Shown here piece after piece: positions 9,766 through 40,958 of a DNA stretch of 64,000 nt. Positions within the stretch are counted from its first letter, which is position 1. Every line of letters begins with the position of its first letter. A program made the position numbers and the translations under genes. This DNA is from Dehalococcoidia bacterium (GTDB lineage Bacteria; Chloroflexota; Dehalococcoidia; Lucifugimonadales; UBA3495), in NCBI GenBank assembly GCA_965222595.1, contig CBDCUJ010000001.1, forward strand, positions 235,522-299,521, given 5' to 3'. The notes beneath the pieces were generated by a model. The model made no database searches and was not told the DNA's origin. It saw only the letters and a program-made list of their open reading frames with translations.

Positions 9766-10004
9766 CTTAGATATCCGGGCCTGACCCTGCGTCTGGTGAG
9801 CATGCCGCGAACAGCCCTGACTTCAACATCTATGAGGCTATCTGGAACTCGGTGTAGGAGGAAACGATAGGAAACAACGGCGCTGGTGCAGGATAGACGG
9901 AGCGCTTTTTTGCCAGCCTAGTCGACAGAAGAGAGGAGGTCAAACGGCGTTGCTGGACCGTCCTCCGATCTTGCATCGATTACGCACATCGTGCCGTTCA
10001 ATTT

Positions 10005-10616
10005 TCAGCCTCTGGCGAGGTCCGCAATCATTATTTTCGCTGTAGTGAGATATTCATCAACTTTGGCTACGGAATGTCTTTGGCGAGAGGTCAAGAACGC
10101 TTCTATTCTGACCCTGCTATTAGCACCGTAGACTACTCGAACCACTTCTCTGTAACCCTGTCTCGCCTGCGGACTCCTGTGTGCCAAGAAGTTCCGCACC
10201 TTTCTCATTTCACTGAGTATGTTTCCGTGGGCTTGCGCATAGACTATGAAGGGATCAGTAGAATTGAGAACTTGCGAAGTGCTATCGCGAATGTCCTTTA
10301 CGCTTGTCCATCTCAGGTAATTCTTCCTTTCTGATCGACCAAACGTGAGCATGGCGGATCTTGCGCCACCCATACTGTTGGCAGGGAAGAGCCTTGCCGG
10401 ACGAGCCCCGTTTACATAGGGGGCTCCTGCCACCAGTTTGCAAGCTATATCTTCGATCGCGCTCTCAACAATCGAGAACAGCCGCAGTATTATCAACTCG
10501 GTAATCAAGTATTGGTGCACTGGGGCCAGGGACCGGGAGTTTGCCCTAAATGTTTCAAGACGCTCGATATCAGTGGTAGTATTTCGTACAGTAACATCCA
10601 CCCGAGGTGCAGGCAT
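10005..10616 (-). CDS. HEPN-like protein (Rx4H motif), partner of the DUF262 gene
   Basis: 203 aa. C-terminal helix carries MRKVRNFLAHRS (R-x4-H HEPN signature). Its start ATG overlaps the upstream gene stop (TAATG). Looks AT-richer than the flanks by eye. Confidence 0.55.
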   Translation of the reverse strand: MPAPRVDVTVRNTTTDIERLETFRANSRSLAPVHQYLITELIILRLFSIVESAIEDIACKLVAGAPYVNGARPARLFPANSMGGARSAMLTFGRSERKNYLRWTSVKDIRDSTSQVLNSTDPFIVYAQAHGNILSEMRKVRNFLAHRSPQARQGYREVVRVVYGANSRVRIEAFLTSRQRHSVAKVDEYLTTAKIMIADLARG

Positions 10617-11611
10617 TATGTAAGGAACCTTCGTATGTAAGCATCCCTAATGGTCCGCTGCCGGATTCGTTGCGTTGTAGCGGTGGAAGCAATAACGAAC
10701 TGCTGGTCGTCATAAGTCTGATGTTCGCTATCTTGATGATATCGCGCATCGATTTCGTACAATGAATTCACGACCTTCGGGACTTCCAATTTTTTCATGG
10801 AATCCATCACCAGAAGCAGAGAGAAAAGGACAGGTTGACGGCCGAAGATAGTGTCGCGAATTACCGACGGCTCGATATCGGCAATGAAGTCAAATAGTCT
10901 GTCCATTCGCTGAGCCACTTCAGTTTGACATGGGAAGTCTTCTTCAAACTTTTTATAAATATTGCAAAGCCTCGTAGGACTGAAATCGGACAAGCCCTCA
11001 AGCAAATTCAGTGCCAAATCTGATATGAACTGCACTTCGTTCATCCTTGCGATGTCATTTGCAGTGAATATATTGTAAGTCCGCCACAGTTCCACCCTTG
11101 ACGATGCCTGCCGTAGACAGAATTGCTTGAATTCTCCGCTGAATGCCGAGTTACGTTTTTCTTGGGAATTAAGGCTTTTGCTTACAGAGTTGATCCTACC
11201 GAAAATGTCTATTACATCCGGATCCGTAGCACCCAGGAGATACCCAACCGGTATTCCGGTCAGCAAGAATGCCTCTCGCTCTGTTCTGTTCAACTGAGAG
11301 AAGGTTTGTCTGGCTCCGTTCTCCGGGTGTTTCACTGAGAACTCATTGCGGCAGAATCCGAGGATTGCCCTAATTCGCTGCTGTCCGTCGACGACTTCCC
11401 GGACGGTTTTCCCACGATCCAAGTCCAGTGAATACCTGATGTAGATGGCTGGAATGGGCTTTTGCTCAATGAGTGTATTAATCAAATACGATTTCTGAGG
11501 CGTGGTCCAAACCGAGCGCCGTTGATACCAAGGAGAGTAGTTGAGCTCCCCCGAGTTATCGAGGTTTCGGATATCCTGCACCATCAACGACTGATAATCA
11601 ACTCTGTCCAT
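10616..11611 (-). CDS. DUF262 (ParB/Srx-fold, GmrSD N-terminal-like) domain protein without a DUF1524 nuclease domain
   Basis: YSPWYQRRSVWTTPQKSYLINTLIEQKPIPAIYI and VVDGQQRIRAILGF (DGQQR motif). 331 aa. Confidence 0.8.
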   Translation of the reverse strand: MDRVDYQSLMVQDIRNLDNSGELNYSPWYQRRSVWTTPQKSYLINTLIEQKPIPAIYIRYSLDLDRGKTVREVVDGQQRIRAILGFCRNEFSVKHPENGARQTFSQLNRTEREAFLLTGIPVGYLLGATDPDVIDIFGRINSVSKSLNSQEKRNSAFSGEFKQFCLRQASSRVELWRTYNIFTANDIARMNEVQFISDLALNLLEGLSDFSPTRLCNIYKKFEEDFPCQTEVAQRMDRLFDFIADIEPSVIRDTIFGRQPVLFSLLLVMDSMKKLEVPKVVNSLYEIDARYHQDSEHQTYDDQQFVIASTATTQRIRQRTIRDAYIRRFLT

Positions 11612-11738
11612 ATCTCACCCGCATGTACCATCACTCACAAATCTGCCTTGGTTCGGTAGCATTAGCCGAAGTATATTGACCCACCCAGATTTCGCAATAG
11701 CTTGACCTAAACCAAGGTGAAACGTGCAGTTAGTCTAA

Positions 11739-11831
11739 GCCCCATTTTCTGTACCAAGTTCAGTGCGAATTGTGCGGGTCATGGTCTTGCCCCATTTTCT
11801 GTACCAAGCTTAGTGCGAGTTTTGCGGGTCA
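11739..11831 (+). repeat. Two imperfect 43-bp direct repeats with a 50-bp period
   Basis: GCCCCATTTTCTGTACCAAGTTCAGTGCGAATTGTGCGGGTCA (11739-11781) and GCCCCATTTTCTGTACCAAGCTTAGTGCGAGTTTTGCGGGTCA (11789-11831), 39/43 identical. Located between the DUF262 promoter region and the tRNA 3' end. Confidence 0.8.
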
Positions 11832-11874
11832 ATCCGCTGTTTCAGCCAATGCGCTAAGCTTCCAAAAGCAGAAG

Positions 11875-11946
11875 TGGGCCCGGCAGGGATCGAACCTGCC
11901 ACCAGCCGGTTATGAGCCGGCTGCTCTACCACTGAGCTACGGGCCC
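11875..11946 (-). tRNA. tRNA with CAT anticodon (elongator Met, or Ile2 if lysidine-modified)
   Basis: Reverse complement GGGCCCGTAGCTCAGTGGTAGAGCAGCCGGCTCATAACCGGCTGGTGGCAGGTTCGATCCCTGCCGGGCCCA folds as a cloverleaf: 7-bp acceptor stem, GCTC/GAGC D stem, GCCGG/CCGGC anticodon stem with loop CTCATAA, TTCGATC T loop. G1-C72 argues against an initiator. No encoded CCA. Confidence 0.9.
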
Positions 11947-12076
11947 GTCAGTCTAGCCTACGCCCGGTCTTTTCAGGGTGTCAAGGCAAGTGGACTGTCC
12001 GCCGGACGGGTGGGGTCTTGGCGGCATACAGTAACAGGGCCGCAGGCTTGGGCCTGGCCTTTTGCGGCGTTGCCGC

Positions 12077-18381: not shown

Positions 18382-18966
18382 TTAAGTGACCAACACCGTA
18401 CGCAAGTCATCGAAGAAGATATTCAGCGAAGCTACGTTTTGACGGGCCCGGGAGAGGTCCATCGTACCGACAATATCATCTGCATATTCAGCGCCGTTCA
18501 GCAAGGAATCAACTCCTCCTTCTCGAAAAAGCCTTCTGAGTTGCGTTTTCAAAGCCGCCCAATCGCAGCCGGCAGGTATCGGCGGTGTGGTATTTGCTTG
18601 GGCAATGTTTCTAATTGCTTCCTGGTCGGCCAGATACCAAGCTTCTATGCAGGGGTTTGGAGCCGCAATTACCAAGGGGCCTATATAACCGTCGGCATTT
18701 CGCAGCAACGCACTCTTGGTTTCCGGTACTCCCCGGCAGTCCGTATCCTGAGCTGCTACCACCATGTCGTATTCGGCATAACCGGATTTCAGGTAGTCCA
18801 AGACATATCTTCGGAATGACCCCTCCATGCTGGGTTTCCCACCGGTCGCGTTGCGTGTATCGAAATCGATCACTTTTCCGGGAACGATTTGGCTGGCGAC
18901 CTTACGTATAAGACTTGTTATGAAATTGTGATGTCCAACGTCCTCGAGGAACAGCCCTATTCTCAC
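18382..18966 (-). CDS. DUF4276/TOPRIM-like protein (putative nuclease partner of the upstream ATPase)
   Basis: 194 aa. TOPRIM-type acidic residues LFLEDVG (Glu) and AAQDTDC (DxD), plus CIEAWYLAD. GTG start 3 nt after the ATPase stop. Confidence 0.6.
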   Translation of the reverse strand: MRIGLFLEDVGHHNFITSLIRKVASQIVPGKVIDFDTRNATGGKPSMEGSFRRYVLDYLKSGYAEYDMVVAAQDTDCRGVPETKSALLRNADGYIGPLVIAAPNPCIEAWYLADQEAIRNIAQANTTPPIPAGCDWAALKTQLRRLFREGGVDSLLNGAEYADDIVGTMDLSRARQNVASLNIFFDDLRTVLVT

Positions 18967-18969
18967 CGA

Positions 18970-20223
18970 TTAGCCACCTAAGTCCCCACGGATAATCCTC
19001 TCGTCTAGCGCCGTGTCAATGTCTTCTGGCTTGAACATCGGCGCCTTGAGCGGGAAGGGGGTGAACTGGGATCGGTGCCCATCGCGGTACGCAACTACCA
19101 AATCAGCGTTTTCAAAGTACTTGGGCATCAGTGGAGAATGGGTCGTGACGAGTAATTGTTGGCTCATCGACCGGGCTCGTTCCGACAATATTTTGGCGGT
19201 TAGCTCGATCCTCCGGGGATGGACTCCATTTTCGGGCTCTTCGAAACCGATAGTAGTATTGTCTTCTTGGGACGACAGAATAGCCAATAAACCCAATACT
19301 CTCAGGGTGCCTTCGGAAATGACTCGCGATGAATAAAAAACATCGTCCTCAACAATCAACAACTCCACGAACCCTTCGTCGGTGCGTCGGACGTCCATGC
19401 CGGAAACCGCTGGAACGACCTGCCGCAGAGTCTTGGACAGCGCATCGAATTGTCTAGGATTCTTGGCTTTCAGATTGAAGAAATAACCCGCCAGATCCTG
19501 ACCGTTCGGTCCGATCGCCCGCACTTCCTTTAGCGGCGTATTCTCCCGCATGAGTATTGGATCGAAATAGTAAAAACTCCAGCGGGCCAATTCCTCTTTG
19601 AATGCAGTAATATGCGGATAATGCGGCGCGTATAAAGGCTGTGAGACAATAGTGTAAGGTAGTCCGACATCGTGCATAGTCGGATGTGCCTGCCCTTCCA
19701 TTCGTAAGGAGAGTTTGTCACCCGTTCGTTCAAAGAAGGGGTTTCTACTCTTCCGCTCGCTCCCGTCTTTGTTCAACGCTACGAGCCGCTCGTCAGCTAC
19801 CCTCAACACTGCGGTCTCCGGCAAAAACTCAACCGCTAGAGAATATCGCAAGTTGGGTTCAGTAACGTGCCTGGTGCTGTAGGTCGTTAGTCCTTCTCGG
19901 AGATTCCTAATTCGTTTCTCCGTTACGTTAACCGCTTGATCAGAAAGAGAAACATCAACGGTTATCCTTAGTTGAAGATTCGACTGCTGAAGCGAATGCT
20001 GAATGCCGCGTTCGGTGAAGAACGCTTCCACTGGAATTCCGCGGTGGGCGTCAAAAGCAGTTTTCAGGTCAGGTTGGGTCGCCATCGCGCTCAAAAGACG
20101 GAGCGCATCAAACAGATTGCTCTTGCCGGAGGCATTCGGTCCGACGATCACAGTGAGTGGACGAAGCGTCAACTTGACGTCGCAAAGCGATTTGTAGCCG
20201 GAAATTTCTACTCGGGTAATCAT
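18970..20223 (-). CDS. ABC/OLD-like AAA ATPase (AAA_21/AAA_15 type)
   Basis: MITRVEISGYKSL..., Walker A VGPNASGKSNLFDAL, Walker B region IGFEEPENGVHPRRIE, LLVTTHSPLM. 417 aa. Confidence 0.8.
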   Translation of the reverse strand: MITRVEISGYKSLCDVKLTLRPLTVIVGPNASGKSNLFDALRLLSAMATQPDLKTAFDAHRGIPVEAFFTERGIQHSLQQSNLQLRITVDVSLSDQAVNVTEKRIRNLREGLTTYSTRHVTEPNLRYSLAVEFLPETAVLRVADERLVALNKDGSERKSRNPFFERTGDKLSLRMEGQAHPTMHDVGLPYTIVSQPLYAPHYPHITAFKEELARWSFYYFDPILMRENTPLKEVRAIGPNGQDLAGYFFNLKAKNPRQFDALSKTLRQVVPAVSGMDVRRTDEGFVELLIVEDDVFYSSRVISEGTLRVLGLLAILSSQEDNTTIGFEEPENGVHPRRIELTAKILSERARSMSQQLLVTTHSPLMPKYFENADLVVAYRDGHRSQFTPFPLKAPMFKPEDIDTALDERIIRGDLGG

Positions 20224-20829: not shown

Positions 20830-20981
20830 GGGAGCCCCAGTATTCTAGGTTTGAACCGGACTGAGCCGCAACTAACAGCCCGGTCCGGCCGGCAAGTGGC
20901 TCCTAGACTAACCACCGGCGCTAACCTACAATCCCGGCAGCAACGAGAAGGAACATCGACCAACCACCGCAGGAGGCAACG

Positions 20982-22049
20982 ATGGAAAACGGCTTGATCC
21001 GAATAGGCTTGATCGGCGCCGGGGCCAACACCCGTCTCCGCCACATTCCCGGTTTCAGGGAACAGTCCGGAGTGGAAATCGTCGCCGTGGCCAACCGGAG
21101 CCGGGAGTCGGGTAAACGCATCGCGAGCGAGTACGAAATCCCCAAGGTCTACGACAACTGGCTGGAGTTGATGGAAGACGACAGCATCGACGCCGTCTGC
21201 GTCGGCACCTGGCCTTACATGCACCGCAACCTGGTGCTGGCCGCCTTGGAAGCCGACAAGCACGTACTCACCGAAGCCCGCATGGCCATGAACGCCCAAG
21301 AGGCCCACGACATGCTGGACGCCTCCCGCCAGTTCCCTCACCTGGTCACCCAGATAGTGCCCGCCCCCCAGACCCTGGAGGTCGACGCTACCGTCAAGGA
21401 ATATGTGGCCAACGGTTACTTGGGCGAAATCCTGGCGGTGCGGCTGCGGGTCTGCGACTATCACGGCCGCAGCAACCGGGCTGACACCTTCATCGACACC
21501 GAAGCGCCGTTGCACTGGAGGCAAGACCGCACTCTAAGCGGCTACAACATCCTGGGCATGGGCATCGGGTATGAGACCGTCATGCGGTACGTCGGTCCCG
21601 CTACCCGCGTTTCCGCCATGACCAAGGTGTTCGCCAACAGGCGCCGCGACGAGAACGGGATCGTACAGGCAGTGTCGGTGCCCGACCACGTCAACGTCCT
21701 GTGCGAGATGGCCTGCGGAGCCCAGGCCGACTTCAGCTGGAGCACCGTGACCGGTCTGCAGACCGGCACCGATTTCTGGATTTTCGGCTCCGACGGGACC
21801 ATCAGCCTGCAGGGTCCGCCTTTCAACAAGGTCCTGGGCGGCAAAAGAGGGGCCGAGCAGCTTGAGGAATTGCCCATTGCGCCGGAGATGCGGGGCAAGT
21901 GGCGGGCGGAGGAGGAGTTCTGCAACGCCATCCGTGGCACGGAGTCTATCACCCACACTCCCTTCGACATCGGCGTGCAATACATGGAGTTCACCGAGGC
22001 GGTGACCCGCAGTGCCCAAACCGGACAGGCGGTGTCGCTGCCGCTTTAG
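20982..22049 (+). CDS. Gfo/Idh/MocA family oxidoreductase (paralog 1)
   Basis: IRIGLIGAGANTRLRHIPGF Rossmann N-terminus. Shares long identical blocks with 22909..23946 (VAVANRSRESG, YDNW.EL.ED, GTWPYMHR, FTEAVTRSAQTGQAV). Confidence 0.85.
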   Translation: MENGLIRIGLIGAGANTRLRHIPGFREQSGVEIVAVANRSRESGKRIASEYEIPKVYDNWLELMEDDSIDAVCVGTWPYMHRNLVLAALEADKHVLTEARMAMNAQEAHDMLDASRQFPHLVTQIVPAPQTLEVDATVKEYVANGYLGEILAVRLRVCDYHGRSNRADTFIDTEAPLHWRQDRTLSGYNILGMGIGYETVMRYVGPATRVSAMTKVFANRRRDENGIVQAVSVPDHVNVLCEMACGAQADFSWSTVTGLQTGTDFWIFGSDGTISLQGPPFNKVLGGKRGAEQLEELPIAPEMRGKWRAEEEFCNAIRGTESITHTPFDIGVQYMEFTEAVTRSAQTGQAVSLPL

Positions 22050-22061
22050 GCGGAGGAGGTT

Positions 22062-22916
22062 ATGGGAGAGTTTACCTGGCAGATCGGCGTCTGGAGCGCC
22101 GACCGGGAGCACTTAGAAACGGTGGCCGCGCTGGTTGATACCGGCTCTTCCTATTCAGCGTTTCCCCGGACTATGCTCGAACGTCTGGGGATTGTACCGC
22201 GTTTCCTCCTGCCTTTCGAGATGGCCGACGGCAGCATCATCCAGAGAGATGTCGGCTTGGCTATGCTGGTGATTAACGACAGCGAGAGCTCCATGCGCGT
22301 CACATTCGGTGATGACGACGCCGAGCCCTTAATCGGCGCCAATGCGCTGCAAGAATTTTTGCTTATGGTAGACCCGGTTGAGGAACGGCTGATTCCCCGG
22401 ACAGGAAGAATGAAGCCGTTGAGGAGGGGGCAGCGAAATGGGATGTTTTATTGCTCCATAGAAGTCGGCGATCTGAACGGCGACAACTTAGAGACCGTGG
22501 AGGTACTGGCAAGCAGCAGGCCCGGATTCTTGCATCTCCCGCAGACGCTTCTTTACCGGCTTGGTATTTCACCCACAAGAATGTTGATATTTAAGAGTCC
22601 CGACGGGAACATCGTCGAACTGGGAGTCGCCGACGCACGGGTGCGGCTTGACGACCGGAGCGCGTCGACGCCGGTGGTCTTTGATGAAGACGCTGCCCCG
22701 GCGCGGCTGGGCCACGTCACGCTGGCCGGCCTCGGCCTGAAAGTTGACCCGGCGCAAAACCGCTTGGTTGATGAACTGCCACTGATGAAGCTGCCAGGAT
22801 GGTACGAAAAACAGCGATTACTGAAGGAATGGATGGAGCGGAATTGGCCAGAGCATAAGGCGCCCCGCGGATCTAACTCAAACCGTCCACCAGCAAGGGA
22901 GAATCACCATGGCTAG
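22062..22916 (+). CDS. Tandem retropepsin-like (clan AA) aspartic protease domains; the second domain lacks DTG
   Basis: Domain 1 has ALVDTGSSYSAF. Domain 2 aligns with it (MFYCSIEVGDLNGDNLETVEVLASSRPGFLHL...GLKVDPAQNRL) but has SSR in place of DTG. Overlaps the next gene start by 8 nt. Confidence 0.7.
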   Translation: MGEFTWQIGVWSADREHLETVAALVDTGSSYSAFPRTMLERLGIVPRFLLPFEMADGSIIQRDVGLAMLVINDSESSMRVTFGDDDAEPLIGANALQEFLLMVDPVEERLIPRTGRMKPLRRGQRNGMFYCSIEVGDLNGDNLETVEVLASSRPGFLHLPQTLLYRLGISPTRMLIFKSPDGNIVELGVADARVRLDDRSASTPVVFDEDAAPARLGHVTLAGLGLKVDPAQNRLVDELPLMKLPGWYEKQRLLKEWMERNWPEHKAPRGSNSNRPPARENHHG

Positions 22917-23946
22917 CGAAGGTATACGAGTCGGCCTAATCGGGGCCGGCCGGAACACCCGGGACCGCCATATTCCGGGTTTCCAAGAGGTAAACGGCGT
23001 GGAGATAGTCGCGGTGGCCAACCGCTCCCGGGAATCCGGGCGTCAGGCGGCCGACCAGTTCAACATCCCCACCGTCTACGACAACTGGCAGGAGCTGCTG
23101 GAAGACCCGACCATCGACGCCGTCTGCATCGGCACCTGGCCCTACATGCACCGGGTGTTGACCATCTCGGCCCTCGAGGCGGGCAAGCACGTGCTCTGCG
23201 AGGCCCGGATGGCGGCCACCGCCCAAGAAGCCCACGACATGCTCGACGCCTCGCGGGCCCGCCCCGACTTGGTCACCCAGATCGTGCCTTCCCCTCTTAC
23301 CTTCAAGGTGGACAACCTGTTGCAACAGAAGATCGCGGAGGGTTACGTGGGTCACATCCTGGCGGTCTCGGTCCAATCGTTGGCCCCCGCATTCATGGAG
23401 GCCGGAGGGCCGATGCACTGGCGCAACGACCGCGACCTGAGCGGCTTTAACATCCTCAACATGGGGATCTGGTACGAGGCCATGATCCGTTGGGTGGGGC
23501 GCGCTAACAACGTAATGGCGATGACCAGCATCAACGCTTCCCACCGGACCGGCGAAGACGGCAACCGTGTGCCGGTCAGTATCCCCGACCACGTCGACAT
23601 TCTGGCCGGGTTGGCCAACGGGGCCCAAGCCAACTTGCGCTTCAGCGCGGTGACCGGCCTCGCGCCCGGGAACGACGTTTGGATCTATGGCGCCGAGGGC
23701 ACTCTGCGGTTGGACTCGGGGTTGAACGTCTGGGGCGGCAAGCGCGGCGAACACCAGCTGGCGGAAATCCCCAATCCCGCCGAAGGACAGGCCTACTGGC
23801 GGGTGGAAGAGGAGTTCTGCAGCGCCATACGCGGCCAGGAAAGAATCACCCGCACCCCCTTCGACGTCGGCGTCCACTACATGGAGTTCACCGAGGCCGT
23901 CACCCGCAGCGCCCAGACCGGCCAAGCGGTAGCCCTGCCGTTATAG
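22909..23946 (+). CDS. Gfo/Idh/MocA family oxidoreductase (paralog 2)
   Basis: IRVGLIGAGRNTRDRHIPGF. Paralog of 20982..22049. Confidence 0.85.
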   Translation: MASEGIRVGLIGAGRNTRDRHIPGFQEVNGVEIVAVANRSRESGRQAADQFNIPTVYDNWQELLEDPTIDAVCIGTWPYMHRVLTISALEAGKHVLCEARMAATAQEAHDMLDASRARPDLVTQIVPSPLTFKVDNLLQQKIAEGYVGHILAVSVQSLAPAFMEAGGPMHWRNDRDLSGFNILNMGIWYEAMIRWVGRANNVMAMTSINASHRTGEDGNRVPVSIPDHVDILAGLANGAQANLRFSAVTGLAPGNDVWIYGAEGTLRLDSGLNVWGGKRGEHQLAEIPNPAEGQAYWRVEEEFCSAIRGQERITRTPFDVGVHYMEFTEAVTRSAQTGQAVALPL

Positions 23947-23968
23947 TGCTATCGAAGCGAGGGAACGA

Positions 23969-24325
23969 ATGGGAACGTTCAACTGTTCGGTCAGGCTAAC
24001 CAGCTTCGACGGCGAAAAGTCTGTAGACGTGGACGCGCTGGTCGATACCGGCGCCAGCTACAGCGTGTTTCCTGCCAGTCTGTTGGCCGACCTAGGGGTT
24101 TCGCCGGGCGATCGTGGCGAGTTTGAATACGGGGACGGTCGGCGCGCCGAGTTGGATTTAGGTCAACACTGGATCACGGTCGATGGTCGAAGTACTGTCA
24201 CTTGGTCAATATTCGGCGAGGATGAATCGACATTCCTGTTGGGGTCCTACGCGCTTGAAGGGGTGCGGCTTGGCGTAGACCCCTACTCCCAAAGGCTTAT
24301 CCCGATCATCGGGTTGATCAAGTAA
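23969..24325 (+). CDS. Single-domain retropepsin-like (clan AA) aspartic protease
   Basis: 118 aa. ALVDTGASYSVFPASLLADLGV and C-terminal GVRLGVDPYSQRLIP align with both domains of 22062..22916. Confidence 0.7.
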   Translation: MGTFNCSVRLTSFDGEKSVDVDALVDTGASYSVFPASLLADLGVSPGDRGEFEYGDGRRAELDLGQHWITVDGRSTVTWSIFGEDESTFLLGSYALEGVRLGVDPYSQRLIPIIGLIK

Positions 24326-24336
24326 AGATACACCCT

Positions 24337-24879
24337 CTACCTGTCCAGCAAATGCCGCATCGCCTGCGGGGCGGCCGTGGCGGCCCGTTCCCGAAGCTCA
24401 GAAACGGTCAACGTGACAATCGGGTGGTCGATGATCGCCAAGCCGTAGTCCGCGTCCCCCCGCATCCGGGCCATGGCGCGGGCTTGACTCACGAAGGGCT
24501 TGGTGGTCAACACCGTGGAGGCCACCCCCAGCAGCTCCATCTCCATCGCGTCGTGCACACTGCACGAGGTGCAGGAGCCTCATTCCGCCGTGGCGTGAAT
24601 CATCACGTCGCAGCGTTGGGCCAAGTCTTCCAACGCGCTGCGGTCGGCAGGCCATTGGTGGCCGCCCTTGTTGTATTCCAGCACTTCCTTCAGCGAATAC
24701 CGCTCGCCAATGGTCTCGGCCATCATACGCAACAGGTCCTCGGAGTGGGGCTTGTTGTTGGACAACAGTCCCAGCACCCTGCCATTGAGGCTGGCCGGGC
24801 GGGCGGCCAGCACAGCCTGGGTTGGCTGGTCGCGGTCCCGGGGGTCAAGGGCGTAAATACCTCTTGGTGATTCCGGCAT
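24337..24879 (-). CDS. UGSC-motif (UxxCxxC) protein, predicted selenoprotein with in-frame UGA at 24580-24582
   Basis: Track ORFs 24580..24879 and 24337..24558 share one frame and are separated only by TGA. The joined reading is ...CDVMIHATAE-U-GSCTSCSVHDAMEMELLGVASTVL... A stem-loop CTGCAC/CTC/GTGCAG (24560-24574) starts 5 nt after the UGA. Confidence 0.7.
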
Positions 24880-24912: not shown

Positions 24913-25929
24913 TTACCGGGGGACCGTGATTTCCCTCGTAACCGAACGGCTGCTGCCCCAAGAAGTGATGGCGGCCATGAACTCCCCCGCATCCCCTCCG
25001 GCCGGCGCCACCGTGATACGTCCTGGTTCCGGGACGACACCGATGAGCCTCTCCCGGTCCGCCTCGGGCCCCAGCCGGTCGATGCGCCGCCACCGGTCCC
25101 ACTCCCCGGCGGGCAGCCGGGTCTTTTCGTAGACAAAGGCGGCGACTTGTTCCCGGGTCCAACCGAACGCGGCGATGTAGGCCATGAGCTCCTGGCTGAT
25201 CACCAAGACGACTTCCGAGATAGACGGTCCGAGGCCGAGCATGGCATGGGACGCGGCGGTGAGGAAACCTTCCGGCTCCCGGTCACCGTGGCCCTCCAAC
25301 TGCAACGGCGCGTTGGCGGCGACCATGGTGACGGTGCTGGAGCCTTCGTGGAAACCCTTGGCCTCCGCCAATGACCCCCAAGGGCTGGTATCGACGTCTT
25401 CAGCGAAGCAAAAGCTGTATTTGCCGGGATGGCCGAAGGTGCTTTTGTCCATGTCTTGAGCTACCGAACCGTAGTAGTTGGCTTTGACCAGGTTGATCGC
25501 TCGTCCGATGGCCGCGTTGGCCCGGTTCGCCTGCCCCATGAGGTTGACTCCCGGGTTCATGCCGATGTGGGAGGCGTAGGGGCCGCTCACTATCACGAGG
25601 TTCGCGATGCCGTTGGTGGATGTGCTGCTGGCGTGAAGATTATAAGTCCGGTCGCAGACCGCCGAAATTGCCGCCGCGACCACCGGAAAATGCTCCGGCA
25701 GGCAGCCAGCCATCACCGCGTTGACCGCCACGCTCTCAGCCTGAAACGTCTTGCGGCGAATGCCCTCGACACCCAGAACATAATCCGGAGCAAGGCTGCA
25801 ATATTCCAGCATTGCTGAGACGCGCTCCGGGGTGGGCGGAACGATTGGCAGGCCGTCAGTCAGCCCTTCCCGGAAGTAAAATTCCTGGGCCTCGTCCCAA
25901 TCGTTGAAGTGAAAATGCTCGGACAGCAT
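24913..25929 (-). CDS. Conserved hypothetical protein (338 aa), first gene of the UGSC operon
   Basis: Long ORF on the same strand, 34 nt upstream of the UGSC gene. Contains GLTDGLPIVPPTPERV...AVNAVMAGCLPEHFPV. I do not recognise the family. Confidence 0.6.
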   Translation of the reverse strand: MLSEHFHFNDWDEAQEFYFREGLTDGLPIVPPTPERVSAMLEYCSLAPDYVLGVEGIRRKTFQAESVAVNAVMAGCLPEHFPVVAAAISAVCDRTYNLHASSTSTNGIANLVIVSGPYASHIGMNPGVNLMGQANRANAAIGRAINLVKANYYGSVAQDMDKSTFGHPGKYSFCFAEDVDTSPWGSLAEAKGFHEGSSTVTMVAANAPLQLEGHGDREPEGFLTAASHAMLGLGPSISEVVLVISQELMAYIAAFGWTREQVAAFVYEKTRLPAGEWDRWRRIDRLGPEADRERLIGVVPEPGRITVAPAGGDAGEFMAAITSWGSSRSVTREITVPR

Positions 25930-28545: not shown

Positions 28546-29004
28546 GTGATGCGAAACGAGTTCACGGCGATATTCGAAATGGACGACGACCGCGTTGAGC
28601 CGCGCTATGTCGCGTACTGCGCGGAAATCCCCGGCGCCAACGCGGAAGGCAAAACGATGGATGAGGCGCGGACCAATTTGACCGAAGCGGTATCGCGGAC
28701 GCTGGAAGAGCGCCGCGCAAAAACCATGCGCGAAGTCCTGTACGATATCTCGCCCAACGCCACCCGCGAAACCGTGGTTGTACAGTCGTTGCGCAATGAG
28801 TTCACGGCAATAATCGAATGGGGAGAAGACTGGTACATCGCTTTTTGTCCGGAAATGCCCGCCGCCAGCGGTCAGGGCATAACCCGGGAGGAGGCACGGG
28901 ATAATTTGGCCGAAGCAATACTGCTGGTATTGGAAGATAGCCGCGATGACGGCTTGCGCGGCGTGCCTAACGAAGCCATCCGAGAAGTCATCGTAGTCCA
29001 GTGA
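28546..29004 (+). CDS. hicB: HicB-family antitoxin with a duplicated HicB/UPF0150 fold
   Basis: Two repeats: RNEFTAIFEMDDD..YVAYCAEIPGANAEGKTMDEARTNLTEAV and RNEFTAIIEWGEDWYIAFCPEMPAASGQGITREEARDNLAEAI. Overlaps the next gene by 4 nt. Confidence 0.7.
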   Translation: MMRNEFTAIFEMDDDRVEPRYVAYCAEIPGANAEGKTMDEARTNLTEAVSRTLEERRAKTMREVLYDISPNATRETVVVQSLRNEFTAIIEWGEDWYIAFCPEMPAASGQGITREEARDNLAEAILLVLEDSRDDGLRGVPNEAIREVIVVQ

Positions 29005-40297: not shown

Positions 40298-40749
40298 GCG
40301 GATCGCGCTCCCAAAGGGAAAATCAAGCTGGGCAAGCCGCTCCCAATGCGGCCGAAAGACGCCGGGATTGTACCATGGCGTCCGCTGGGAAGCGGATGGC
40401 CGTCAGCCTGTTTCGTGGGCTGTCCCCTGGGCTGCGTCCGTGTCGCAGAACCGGCCGCTGTCTTGCAACTCGGGGTCGATCTCCGCCCGTGTCCGTTCCG
40501 GTAGCGGCTCGAACGGGCCGTATGCGGCGAGGTAACGGCGGGCCAGTCCCGAAACAACCCTCAGGCCGCCACCTCTTGGACGATTCCTCGATGCCTCAGC
40601 CGGACCAGTCGAGGCGGTAGAACTGCGGCGGCGGCTCCAACTTGACAACACCGGCGGCTGAGCACATCATTAGGCAAAGCTTTTCGGACAAGACTACGCT
40701 AGGCGCGTTGTCACACTTTTACAATAGAATATCCCGCACAACAAGATCC

Positions 40750-40958
40750 AACGATGGAAGTGCCCTTCCCAGGGCTTGAACGGGGAAGCTGGTCAAAGTC
40801 CAGCACTGTCCCGCAACGGTAGGTCCCGATTTATCGGGGCGAGTCCGGTCCACGGCTTCCATCGATGTTCTTACCTTCGAGGAAAGGTACTGGCATAACC
40901 CGTTAGCCGCAAGAAGCCCTGTTCCTTCCCGGAGTAAGCGTTGGAACAGGGTTTTTTA
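40750..40958 (+). promoter_or_regulatory. Cobalamin (B12) riboswitch with an intrinsic terminator expression platform
   Basis: P1 GATGGAAG (40752-40759) pairs with CTTCCATC (40856-40863). Core AACGGGGAAGCTGGTCAAAGTCCAGCACTGTCCCGCAACGGTA (B12 box) and GAGTCCGG. Followed by a terminator hairpin. Sits upstream of BtuF-like ABC importer genes. Confidence 0.75.
40917..40957 (+). terminator. Rho-independent terminator (riboswitch expression platform)
   Basis: CCCTGTTCC (40917-40925), 17-nt loop, GGAACAGGG (40943-40951), then TTTTTT. Confidence 0.7.

Follow-up and report, generated by a model that had tools for sequence, protein, structure and literature searches.

Retropepsin-like genes in the intergenic slots of a dehydrogenase pair of a soil Dehalococcoidia bacterium, with a natural fusion of a DTG-type and a non-catalytic domain

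The stretch of DNA analysed here, called the window, comprises 64,000 nucleotides (nt) of a Dehalococcoidia bacterium (assembly GCA_965222595.1, contig CBDCUJ010000001.1, positions 235,522 to 299,521). Four genes on its forward strand alternate between oxidoreductases of the Gfo/Idh/MocA family and small retropepsin-like proteins, in the order Ox1, Prot1, Ox2, and Prot2 (Table 1). The initial annotation, which was made from the sequence without database searches, gave this order together with a 12-nt gap between Ox1 and Prot1, an 8-nt overlap between Prot1 and Ox2 (ATGGCTAG), and a 22-nt gap between Ox2 and Prot2, all of which agree with the coordinates of the open reading frames (ORFs). A Shine-Dalgarno-like GGAGG or GAGGGA precedes the start of each downstream gene (Prot1, Ox2, and Prot2), and no convincing terminator-like site was found at the gene boundaries inside 20982-24325. 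Co-transcription and translational coupling of these genes are plausible. A transcript of all four may begin at the sigma-70-like promoter upstream of Ox1, whose call is a consensus match only, with 3 matches found against 1.3 expected in shuffled sequence. The GC content of the four-gene block resembles that of the remaining genome. A mobile-cassette idea was dropped after direct and inverted repeats had been sought around the protease genes, where only the Ox1/Ox2 paralogy (71-86% nt identity, patchy) was seen; no mobile-element ends or flanking repeats were found at the locus.

Table 1. Coordinates of the four genes, the parts of Prot1, and the upstream promoter match, numbered from the first letter of the window (aa, amino acids).
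Feature	Position	Strand	Description
Sigma-70-like promoter match	20904-20932	+	TAGACT-17-TACAAT, upstream of Ox1
Ox1	20982-22049	+	Gfo/Idh/MocA NAD(P)-dependent oxidoreductase, 355 aa
Prot1	22062-22916	+	Two retropepsin-like domains and C-terminal helix, 284 aa
Prot1 domain 1	22062-22415	+	DTG-type ("live"), aa 1-118
Prot1 linker	22416-22442	+	PLRRGQRNG, nine residues; putative former gene boundary
Prot1 domain 2	22443-22790	+	Non-catalytic ("dead"), aa 128-243
Prot1 C-terminal tail	22791-22916	+	Helix predicted at aa 247-266 (WYEKQRLLKEWMERNW); final 8 nt shared with the start of Ox2
Ox2	22909-23946	+	Gfo/Idh/MocA oxidoreductase, 345 aa, ancient paralog of Ox1
Prot2	23969-24325	+	Stand-alone DTG-type retropepsin-like protein, 118 aa

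A family hidden Markov model (HMM) built from homologs detects exactly three retropepsin-like domains in the window, at 22062-22415 and 22437-22790 in Prot1 and at 23969-24322 in Prot2. Pfam recognizes the first domain of Prot1 (PF13975, 28.5 bits against a gathering score of 28.2; PF13650, 27.2 against 24.3) and Prot2 (PF13650, 26.4 bits against 24.3). The second domain of Prot1 has no Pfam match and scores 87 bits with the family HMM (independent E-value, iE, 6.5e-26), to which domain 1 gives 124 bits. The active-site motif is ALVDTGSS in domain 1 and ALVDTGAS in Prot2, both containing the catalytic Asp-Thr/Ser-Gly, which is absent from domain 2, where LASSRPG stands at the aligned position. 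The alignment and the family HMM thus confirm the earlier description of Prot1 as a fused two-domain protein with DTG in its first half and SSR in its second, and of Prot2 as a single domain. Pairwise identity among the three domains is 32-38% (38% for domain 1 and Prot2, 34% for the two halves of Prot1), and the DTG is kept in 98 of the 107 retropepsin-like domains of related loci. The predicted structure of Prot2 has a predicted local distance difference test (pLDDT) score of 95.4 and matches the proteases of human immunodeficiency virus 1 (HIV-1), human T-lymphotropic virus 1 (HTLV-1), xenotropic murine leukemia virus-related virus (XMRV), and simian foamy virus (SFV) with a Foldseek probability of 1.00 and a target-normalised template-modelling (TM) score of 0.61-0.73. 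Prot2 is hence predicted to have the retropepsin fold, which had been proposed for the small proteins of this locus. In the model of Prot1, each half shows the strand and helix order of Prot2. Prot2 and the other DTG copies would act as homodimeric aspartic endopeptidases.

The best-matching NCBIfam subfamily is TIGR03698 (clan_AA_DTGF, of the AF_0612/COG5550 type), with which Prot1 and Prot2 score 41.4 and 35.6 bits, under the cut-off of 57.35. This indicates that they are relatives, not members, of TIGR03698 as NCBI defines it. Peptidases of the COG5550/AF_0612 type resemble the window proteins in being cytoplasmic, in their size of ~120 aa, and in the DTG and hydrophobic-hydrophobic-Gly motifs, and the window proteins differ from them by these sub-threshold scores. 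Against the pepsin-like family A1 (PF00026), Prot2 reaches 11.2 bits where 19.9 is required (E = 0.25) and Prot1 gives no match, its domain 2 lacking the Asp. A sequence search of the Protein Data Bank (PDB) returned marginal matches only (best E = 0.009). No signal peptide, membrane segment, or rimK is evident at the locus, and the protease genes have no match in the PHROG libraries. PADLOC gave no match for Prot1 and a weak one for Prot2 (PDC-M52B, E = 6e-4), which covers ~35 residues around the DTG motif; neither protein was found to belong to a known defence or toxin-antitoxin system.

Searching 1.84 billion representative proteins exhaustively yielded 1489 matches at E ≤ 1e-3, among them the stand-alone relatives of domain 2 described below. 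The 284-aa architecture of Prot1 is also found in two clusters built at 90% identity, P0121 (87% identical) and P0122 (83%). ENA and JGI assemblies contain nine or more distinct sequences of this form, with unfused 122-aa alleles in close relatives. An assembly or frameshift artefact is ruled out by these full-length sequences, since they come from independent assemblies. Single-gene orthologs of domain 1 stand between Ox1 and Ox2 in the related loci L007 (93% identical), L002 (82%), and L090 (75%); in DNA comparison, window positions 22430-22871 have no counterpart in L007, and 22429-22796 have none in L002. Residue 128 of Prot1 is Met in the window and Thr or Ser in L086 and P0121, which suggests that Met128 is the relic start codon of a former downstream gene. 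Such a gene type exists on its own: stand-alone relatives of domain 2 plus the tail (~150 aa) form the clusters P0245 (50% identical), P0261, and P0297, whose active-site motifs are degenerate (AGTG, YDGR, and VDDW), and the tail motif KPPgWYExQRxLxExxER is common to these dead-type proteins. In Prot1, the tail is predicted to form helices at residues 247-261 and 263-266. Its DNA homology to the spacers of L002 and L006 had raised the idea of spacer read-through, which was dropped as the helix motif recurs in the stand-alone proteins.

In the loci of all three clusters (L093, L094, and L095), the slot between Ox1 and Ox2 contains a stand-alone dead-type gene that precedes a DTG-type gene by 2 nt; even on L094, a 1-kb contig, the flanking sequences encode the C-terminus of an Ox protein and the N-terminus of Ox2. 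Directly upstream of the dead-type gene of L095 is a remnant (57 aa) of a domain-1-type gene, so that the gene order matches that of the fused Prot1. The existence of stand-alone dead-type genes and the matching order in L095 together indicate that Prot1 is a fusion of a neighbouring live-type gene with a member of an older dead subfamily. The second half is more than a copy that degenerated within Prot1, since it belongs to this older non-catalytic subfamily, whose members stand alone elsewhere. Other fusions were observed outside the window. Cluster P0249 (8 members, ~301 aa) has two retropepsin-like domains, both with DTG (AVVDTGIAY... and AVVDTGAAH...) and connected through ~45 linker residues; it is an independent natural tandem fusion of this superfamily and possibly a two-Asp "proto-pepsin". 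In P0252, P0272, and P0371, a DTG domain is fused to an unrelated C-terminal segment, which by eye is Cys-rich and thioredoxin-like in P0252, contains a 2Fe-2S-type CGxGxCGAC in P0272, and is ribosomal-protein-L1-like in P0371. These look like read-through fusions with the downstream gene, which fits tight packing beside unrelated genes.

Selection on the locus was evaluated as the ratio of nonsynonymous to synonymous divergence (dN/dS) against L086, which has the same gene layout as the window. This ratio is 0.07 for Prot2, 0.13-0.15 for Ox1 and Ox2, and, within Prot1, 0.13 for domain 1, 0.42 for domain 2, and 0.17 for the tail. The value for domain 2 is significantly below 1 (Fisher p = 0.006), indicating that the dead half is under relaxed selection and still maintained by purifying selection. 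Its motif is SSR in the window and SNR or SDR in close relatives. Synonymous divergence (dS) in the same comparison is uneven along the operon (Ox1 0.05, Ox2 0.16, Prot1 0.31, Prot2 0.29), which suggests recombination or differing histories of the genes.

The Prot1 model has a pLDDT of about 80-89 across domain 2 and below 50 at residues 120-122 in the linker. Its best structural matches are inactive single-chain HIV-1 proteases (4eqj and 4eq0), aligned over ~230 columns that cover both halves. Clan AA aspartic proteases require both Asp residues. Because a live/dead dimer would carry one catalytic Asp, such a dimer within Prot1 is likely inactive or very weak. The pairing of the halves is proposed on Rosetta-stone logic, in which the fusion of neighbouring genes is taken as evidence that their products interact, and Prot1 is thus probably a tethered live/dead heterodimer that is catalytically impaired. 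A linker of 5 residues (GGSSG) suffices for the tethered single-chain dimer of HIV-1 protease (PMC2775671), and that of Prot1 exceeds it by its nine residues. Both roles that the initial annotation had offered, an asymmetric heterodimer with Prot2 and non-catalytic binding, remain viable, and the fusion makes a live/dead pair within the Prot1 chain more likely than one with Prot2.

The oxidoreductases are readily classified at the family level. Each has the N-terminal Rossmann domain (PF01408; 80.4 bits in Ox1 and 90.9 in Ox2) and the C-terminal domain (PF22725/PF02894; PF22725 at 53.1 and 48.9 bits) of Gfo/Idh/MocA enzymes, with scores well over gathering, and a GLIGAG motif at residues 9-14. 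They are 61% identical over 350 aa and share peptide blocks that include VEIVAVANRSRESG and YMEFTEAVTRSAQTGQAV. The long identical blocks reported by the initial annotation hence exist at the protein level but not in the DNA, where the longest exact match is 20 nt. Because of this short match and a third-codon-position identity of about 0.3-0.8, the duplication appears to be old, and recent gene conversion between Ox1 and Ox2 is ruled out on the same grounds. IolG, levoglucosan dehydrogenase, and the D-xylose dehydrogenase Gfo6 have the same two-domain make-up and are the best, though partial, NCBIfam matches. The equivalog scores of Ox1 and Ox2 (58.8-75.2 bits at best for these and UDP-GlcNAc 3-dehydrogenase) are far beneath the cut-offs of 350-650 bits. 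At E ≤ 1e-60, Ox2 has 6912 homologs, and among the 120 best, almost every one has a length of exactly 345 aa. The initial annotation had recommended a check for extensions of the oxidoreductases that could be processed, and none was found, the orthologs having 345 aa with or without proteases beside them.

In the relatives, a conserved core of MaoC-like, 186-aa, and 89-aa genes is followed by an S26 signal peptidase gene on the minus strand and then by Ox1 and Ox2; the Ox1 orthologs are 73-98% identical and syntenic, following the divergent S26 gene in all related loci. The proteases vary in this frame and number 0-4 between the two oxidoreductase genes and 0-2 downstream of Ox2. The slot between Ox1 and Ox2 holds the live+dead fusion in the window and L086, a lone domain-1 type in L007, and a different paralog (type B) in L006, and a Prot2-type gene follows Ox2 in all four. 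L087 and L090 have type B and the domain-1 type, respectively, in the first slot and nothing of the kind after Ox2, and L001 has its protease after Ox2 only. L002 and L003 carry 3-4 proteases and an Ox2 3' fragment between the oxidoreductases, followed after Ox2 by two proteases that are split by a fragment of a UGSC gene. L095 reads domain-1-type remnant, dead, live, Ox2, and live. The sister lineages L088/89 and L091/92 have S26(-), Ox1, and Ox2 without any protease. Prot2 orthologs follow Ox2 in L001, L002/3 (duplicated), L006, L007, and L086.

At least five paralog types can be distinguished among these genes, namely, the domain-1 type, types A, B, and C, the non-catalytic dead type with its C-terminal helix, and the Prot2 type. 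Identity is 27-53% between types and 73-93% within a type, and the types form separate clades in the tree; the flanking proteases are of different, deeply diverged types that are 32-44% identical to each other. Decay is common: the active site reads DAG in the L086 ortholog of Prot2, DTA in L028, and GTG in L003, the N-terminus is frameshifted in L007, and P0123 is a scrambled 172-aa form. Fragments of the Ox2 3' end and the UGSC gene are found among the protease copies of L002 (4213-4419 and 6382-6513) and L003 (3500-3658 and 5621-5752). These are scars of the growth of the array by segmental tandem duplication, in which parts of the adjoining genes were carried along. In the trees of both Ox1 and Ox2, all protease-bearing loci are located in one clade, and the protease-free Ox1-Ox2 loci form its sister clade and the outgroups. 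Only one member of the protease-bearing clade is without a protease, namely, L114, a contig of 1.6 kb whose flanks are too short to judge.

The generality of the pairing was evaluated from both sides. One GTDB genome per species was scanned with a profile of Prot2 homologs, and the best 80 loci were kept, which are almost all from metagenome-assembled genomes of Dehalococcoidia/Chloroflexota, plus some from Acidimicrobiia and Methylomirabilia. Only 3 of the 80 have an adjacent Gfo/Idh/MocA gene: L006 and L007, which are near-identical relatives of the window, and L028, a syntenic locus of a more distant relative. The neighbours in the other 77 are unrelated. With genes called by a codon-model caller that forces HMM matches as genes, the position directly upstream of the protease is occupied by 86 Pfam families in 79 loci (major facilitator superfamily 8, serine recombinase 6, thiamine pyrophosphate enzymes 5, ribbon-helix-helix (RHH) 4, GFO 3), and that directly downstream by 78 families. 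The protease domain is the sole copy within ~6 kb in 76 of the 80; exceptions to the single copy are the Ox locus in L006/L007, L026, L032, L066, L072, and a weak match in L031. In the reverse scan, metagenome contigs searched with a profile of Ox2 orthologs gave 80 loci that are 57-78% identical to Ox2, and none of them contains a retropepsin-like domain. Ox1 and Ox2 are directly adjacent in 22 of these (stop-to-stop gap ≤ 171 nt), of which 20 have at least 450 nt of downstream sequence.

One branch of the Prot2 relatives (54-55% identical; L011, L012, L016, L017, L018, and L022) lies divergently beside a large serine recombinase of 546-630 aa. A convergent ORF of 74-78 aa follows the Prot2 relative in four of these six (L012, L016, L017, and L022) and also in L013. 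This branch possibly represents a mobile-element context.

The surroundings of the four genes contain features of their own. Upstream, 18382-20223 on the minus strand is a low-GC block (0.52) that encodes an AAA_21/AAA_15 ATPase (417 aa) and a DUF4276-like protein (194 aa), a pair that matches the PADLOC candidate system HEC-01 (HEC-01A at E = 3e-66). In the window and L007, this pair forms an insertion that separates the 89-aa gene from that of the S26 peptidase, and it is missing from that site in L086, L001, L087, and L006; it looks like a variable defence-type insertion adjoining the locus. Downstream, the convergent gene at 24337-24879 (-) is a single UGSC-family (PF24696) frame of 180 codons, broken by an in-frame TGA at 24580-24582 ("...IHATAE*GSCTSCS..."). 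This TGA probably encodes selenocysteine, since it coincides exactly with the U that gives the UGSC motif its name. Starting 8 nt past the TGA is a 6-bp hairpin (CTGCAC-CTC-GTGCAG), and the gene is called as two genes (99 and 69/73 aa) at every syntenic locus. A conserved 338-aa protein without a Pfam match follows at 24913-25929. Farther away, the lowest-GC block of the window (10001-12000, 0.49) contains ORFs at 10005-10616 and 10616-11611 (-) that adjoin a tRNA-Met gene (11874-11946, -) and may be an element integrated at the tRNA. A protein of 152 aa at 28546-29004 (+) has two HicB/UPF0150-like halves, a tandem antitoxin-like domain, with Pfam scores at or just over gathering (30.8 bits against 27.3 and 27.8 against 27). 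A cobalamin riboswitch (RF00174, 55 bits, E = 6e-11) is located at 40741-40874 (+), upstream of ORFs from ~40998.

Taken together, we consider the locus to be an array of small cytoplasmic retropepsin-like genes that is specific to one lineage, turns over fast, and occupies the two intergenic slots of an older, independently conserved dehydrogenase pair; we assign a probability of roughly 60% to this reading. The Ox1/Ox2 duplication would have come first, leaving an adjacent pair that persists without protease in marine SAR202-type and other Dehalococcoidia. The retropepsin-like genes would then have entered the Ox1/Ox2 locus once, in the clade of the window, and been inherited vertically, a single acquisition being suggested because the protease-bearing loci form one clade in both Ox trees. 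For the same reason, the repeated pairing appears to be one inherited event and not an independent recurrence. Birth and death in place would have followed through tandem duplication, deletion, frameshift, active-site loss, and gene fusion. Prot1 originated when a DTG-type gene and the adjacent dead-type gene, which are separate and in this order in L095, merged into one frame; its product would be a live/dead heterodimer with a covalent tether, serving in binding or regulation and not as a protease. The dead type itself may pair with a live subunit as a regulator, inhibitor, or binding module. The link between proteases and oxidoreductases would be one of historical co-location and shared transcription.

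Several observations weigh against this reading. The AlphaFold model of Prot1 does not place its two domains as a canonical retropepsin dimer (predicted TM score 0.62; TM 0.28-0.37 to single-chain HIV protease, target-normalised 0.37, root-mean-square deviation ~17 Å), and the Ox trees are neighbour-joining trees without support values. All 10 assessable lineages of the clade keep at least one protease at the locus, including L087 and L090, which were found through Ox2, a figure that is biased as most clade members were found via protease queries. The domain-1 type stays between Ox1 and Ox2 while Ox2 falls to 78% identity. Such retention and tight coupling are compatible with a selected functional link inside the clade, in which the retropepsin-like proteins act on, regulate, or share a pathway with the dehydrogenases, for instance through controlled cleavage of these enzymes or of a regulator. 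The short gaps, the overlap, and the Shine-Dalgarno-like sites before each downstream start are in line with such a partnership, as are the orthologous types that hold their slot over 78-86% Ox2 identity and the purifying selection on domain 1 (0.13) and Prot2 (0.07). We nevertheless regard it as rather unlikely: the pairing belongs to a single clade and so to one evolutionary event, the sister lineages have the Ox pair without proteases, and the protease relatives elsewhere adjoin unrelated genes. Within the clade, the paralog kept, its slot, and the copy number vary by lineage with frequent decay (frameshift, truncation, and DAG, DTA, or GTG), and the oxidoreductases of protease-bearing lineages have no extra segments. 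The initial annotation had argued from the repeated pairing to a selected linkage, an argument that the single clade, the 77 species loci with unrelated neighbours, and the 80 protease-free metagenome loci do not sustain. The gene-neighbourhood check that it recommended shows an adjacency that is not unique to this genome, as it recurs in at least 10 related lineages, and that is confined to one clade.

That annotation also saw a duplicated operon cassette, i.e., an ancestral block of one oxidoreductase and one protease that was duplicated into (Ox1+Prot1)(Ox2+Prot2), the protease-free loci being secondary losses. The alternating gene order of the window agrees with this, and an Ox2 3'-end fragment directly upstream of a domain-1-type gene in L002/L003 implies that an Ox end and a protease were co-duplicated at least once. 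The cassette origin is highly improbable, however, since Ox1 and Ox2 are 61% identical against 38% for domain 1 and Prot2, the flanking proteases are of types only 32-44% identical to each other, several unrelated paralog types share one slot, and protease-free Ox1-Ox2 pairs, which are seen in L088/89, L091/92, and the 22 metagenome loci, make up the sister clade and the outgroups of the Ox1 and Ox2 subtrees alike. The genes may alternatively be selfish or defence-type modules, in which the dead copy neutralises the live protease in toxin-antitoxin style; they would settle in intergenic slots and persist by addiction or an immunity benefit, with no relation to the host operon. A dead/live spacing of 2 nt is usual in many two-gene modules, presence and copy number vary, and some relatives adjoin serine recombinase (6), RHH (4), HicB (3), or helix-turn-helix genes; the candidate defence pair directly upstream in the window, missing in L086 or L006, and the PDC-M52B match of Prot2 point the same way. 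Most relatives, however, are solitary with metabolic neighbours, the PADLOC match is restricted to the ~35 residues around DTG, and the types are passed on vertically at one locus and do not move about. Together with a block GC like that of the remaining genome and the lack of flanking repeats, mobile-element ends, or a PHROG match, this makes such modules quite improbable. The second half of Prot1 alone could be a functionless, decaying remnant, the product of an accidental read-through into a dying neighbour gene. It has lost the DTG with a replacement that varies among close relatives, its dN/dS is the highest of any segment apart from the 9-residue linker, and alleles without it (122 aa; L007) exist alongside the scrambled P0123. 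We find this remnant very doubtful, given that its dN/dS lies significantly under 1, that three or more lineages at 83-87% identity have an unbroken frame of 284 codons, that the domain is predicted to fold, and that the dead type with its helix represents an old subfamily that exists as an intact gene at 36-50% identity.

The array of retropepsin-like genes was compared with known systems. Bacterial proteins with a retropepsin fold and dimeric logic include APRc of Rickettsia, RimB of Pseudomonas (rimABK), and RloA-C of P. aeruginosa. These are described as membrane-anchored or secreted, or as part of the RimK ribosome-modification system, and so appear to act in other settings; the window locus differs by having no evident rimK, signal peptide, or membrane segment. 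The sequence matches to RimB (9g59) and ApRick (5c9b) are marginal (E = 0.15-0.9). By profile search, the closest cellular solved structures are retroviral-protease-like domains of Ddi1/DDI2 over ~90 residues (4rgh, E = 0.01; 3s8i; 2i1a), which are eukaryotic and UBL/UBA-flanked, and the match is too weak to infer orthology. Engineered single-chain HIV-1 protease dimers (4eqj and 4eq0) resemble Prot1 in having two subunits joined C- to N-terminus by a short linker; Prot1 differs in being natural, in the 34% identity of its halves, in the half without catalytic Asp, and in the extra C-terminal helix. A1 enzymes occur among the structural matches of the Prot1 model. They consist of a single chain of two homologous lobes, which under the duplication-fusion hypothesis derives from a dimeric ancestor (PMC2642776, PMC2761423), but they have an Asp in both lobes and lobes of ~170 aa, whereas the lobes of Prot1 are retropepsin-sized and only one has the Asp. 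Little is known about prokaryotic single-domain non-viral clan AA peptidases (PMC2642776). The literature searched gave no account of several such paralogs arrayed at a single locus, of a conserved non-catalytic subfamily bearing a C-terminal helix, or of a live+dead fusion in nature, and the top-ranked results of a search pairing retropepsin with Chloroflexota, Dehalococcoidia, or SAR202 had no mention of retropepsin.

For the annotation of this lineage, the array implies that a gene order repeated within one clade is to be counted as a single event and not as evidence of a pathway, and the dehydrogenase pair is to be interpreted apart from the proteases. For the protease family, the variants of the locus (solo, tandem, live/dead pair, and live+dead fusion) make the rules of dimerisation and activity directly testable. 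The conserved non-catalytic subfamily points to regulation via heterodimerisation, and Prot1 would be an independent natural two-lobe retropepsin fusion, relevant to the origin of bilobal aspartic proteases. A more far-reaching idea, which we think unlikely at present, is that of a natural live/dead system, in which the dead paralog with its C-terminal amphipathic helix is the dedicated partner in an obligate asymmetric heterodimer that regulates or retargets proteolysis tied to the dehydrogenase operon. If this were true, the dead paralogs would constitute a new class of bacterial pseudo-protease regulators, and the locus would display the successive steps of duplication, heterodimer, fusion, and asymmetry that have been proposed for the origin of the pepsin-like enzymes.

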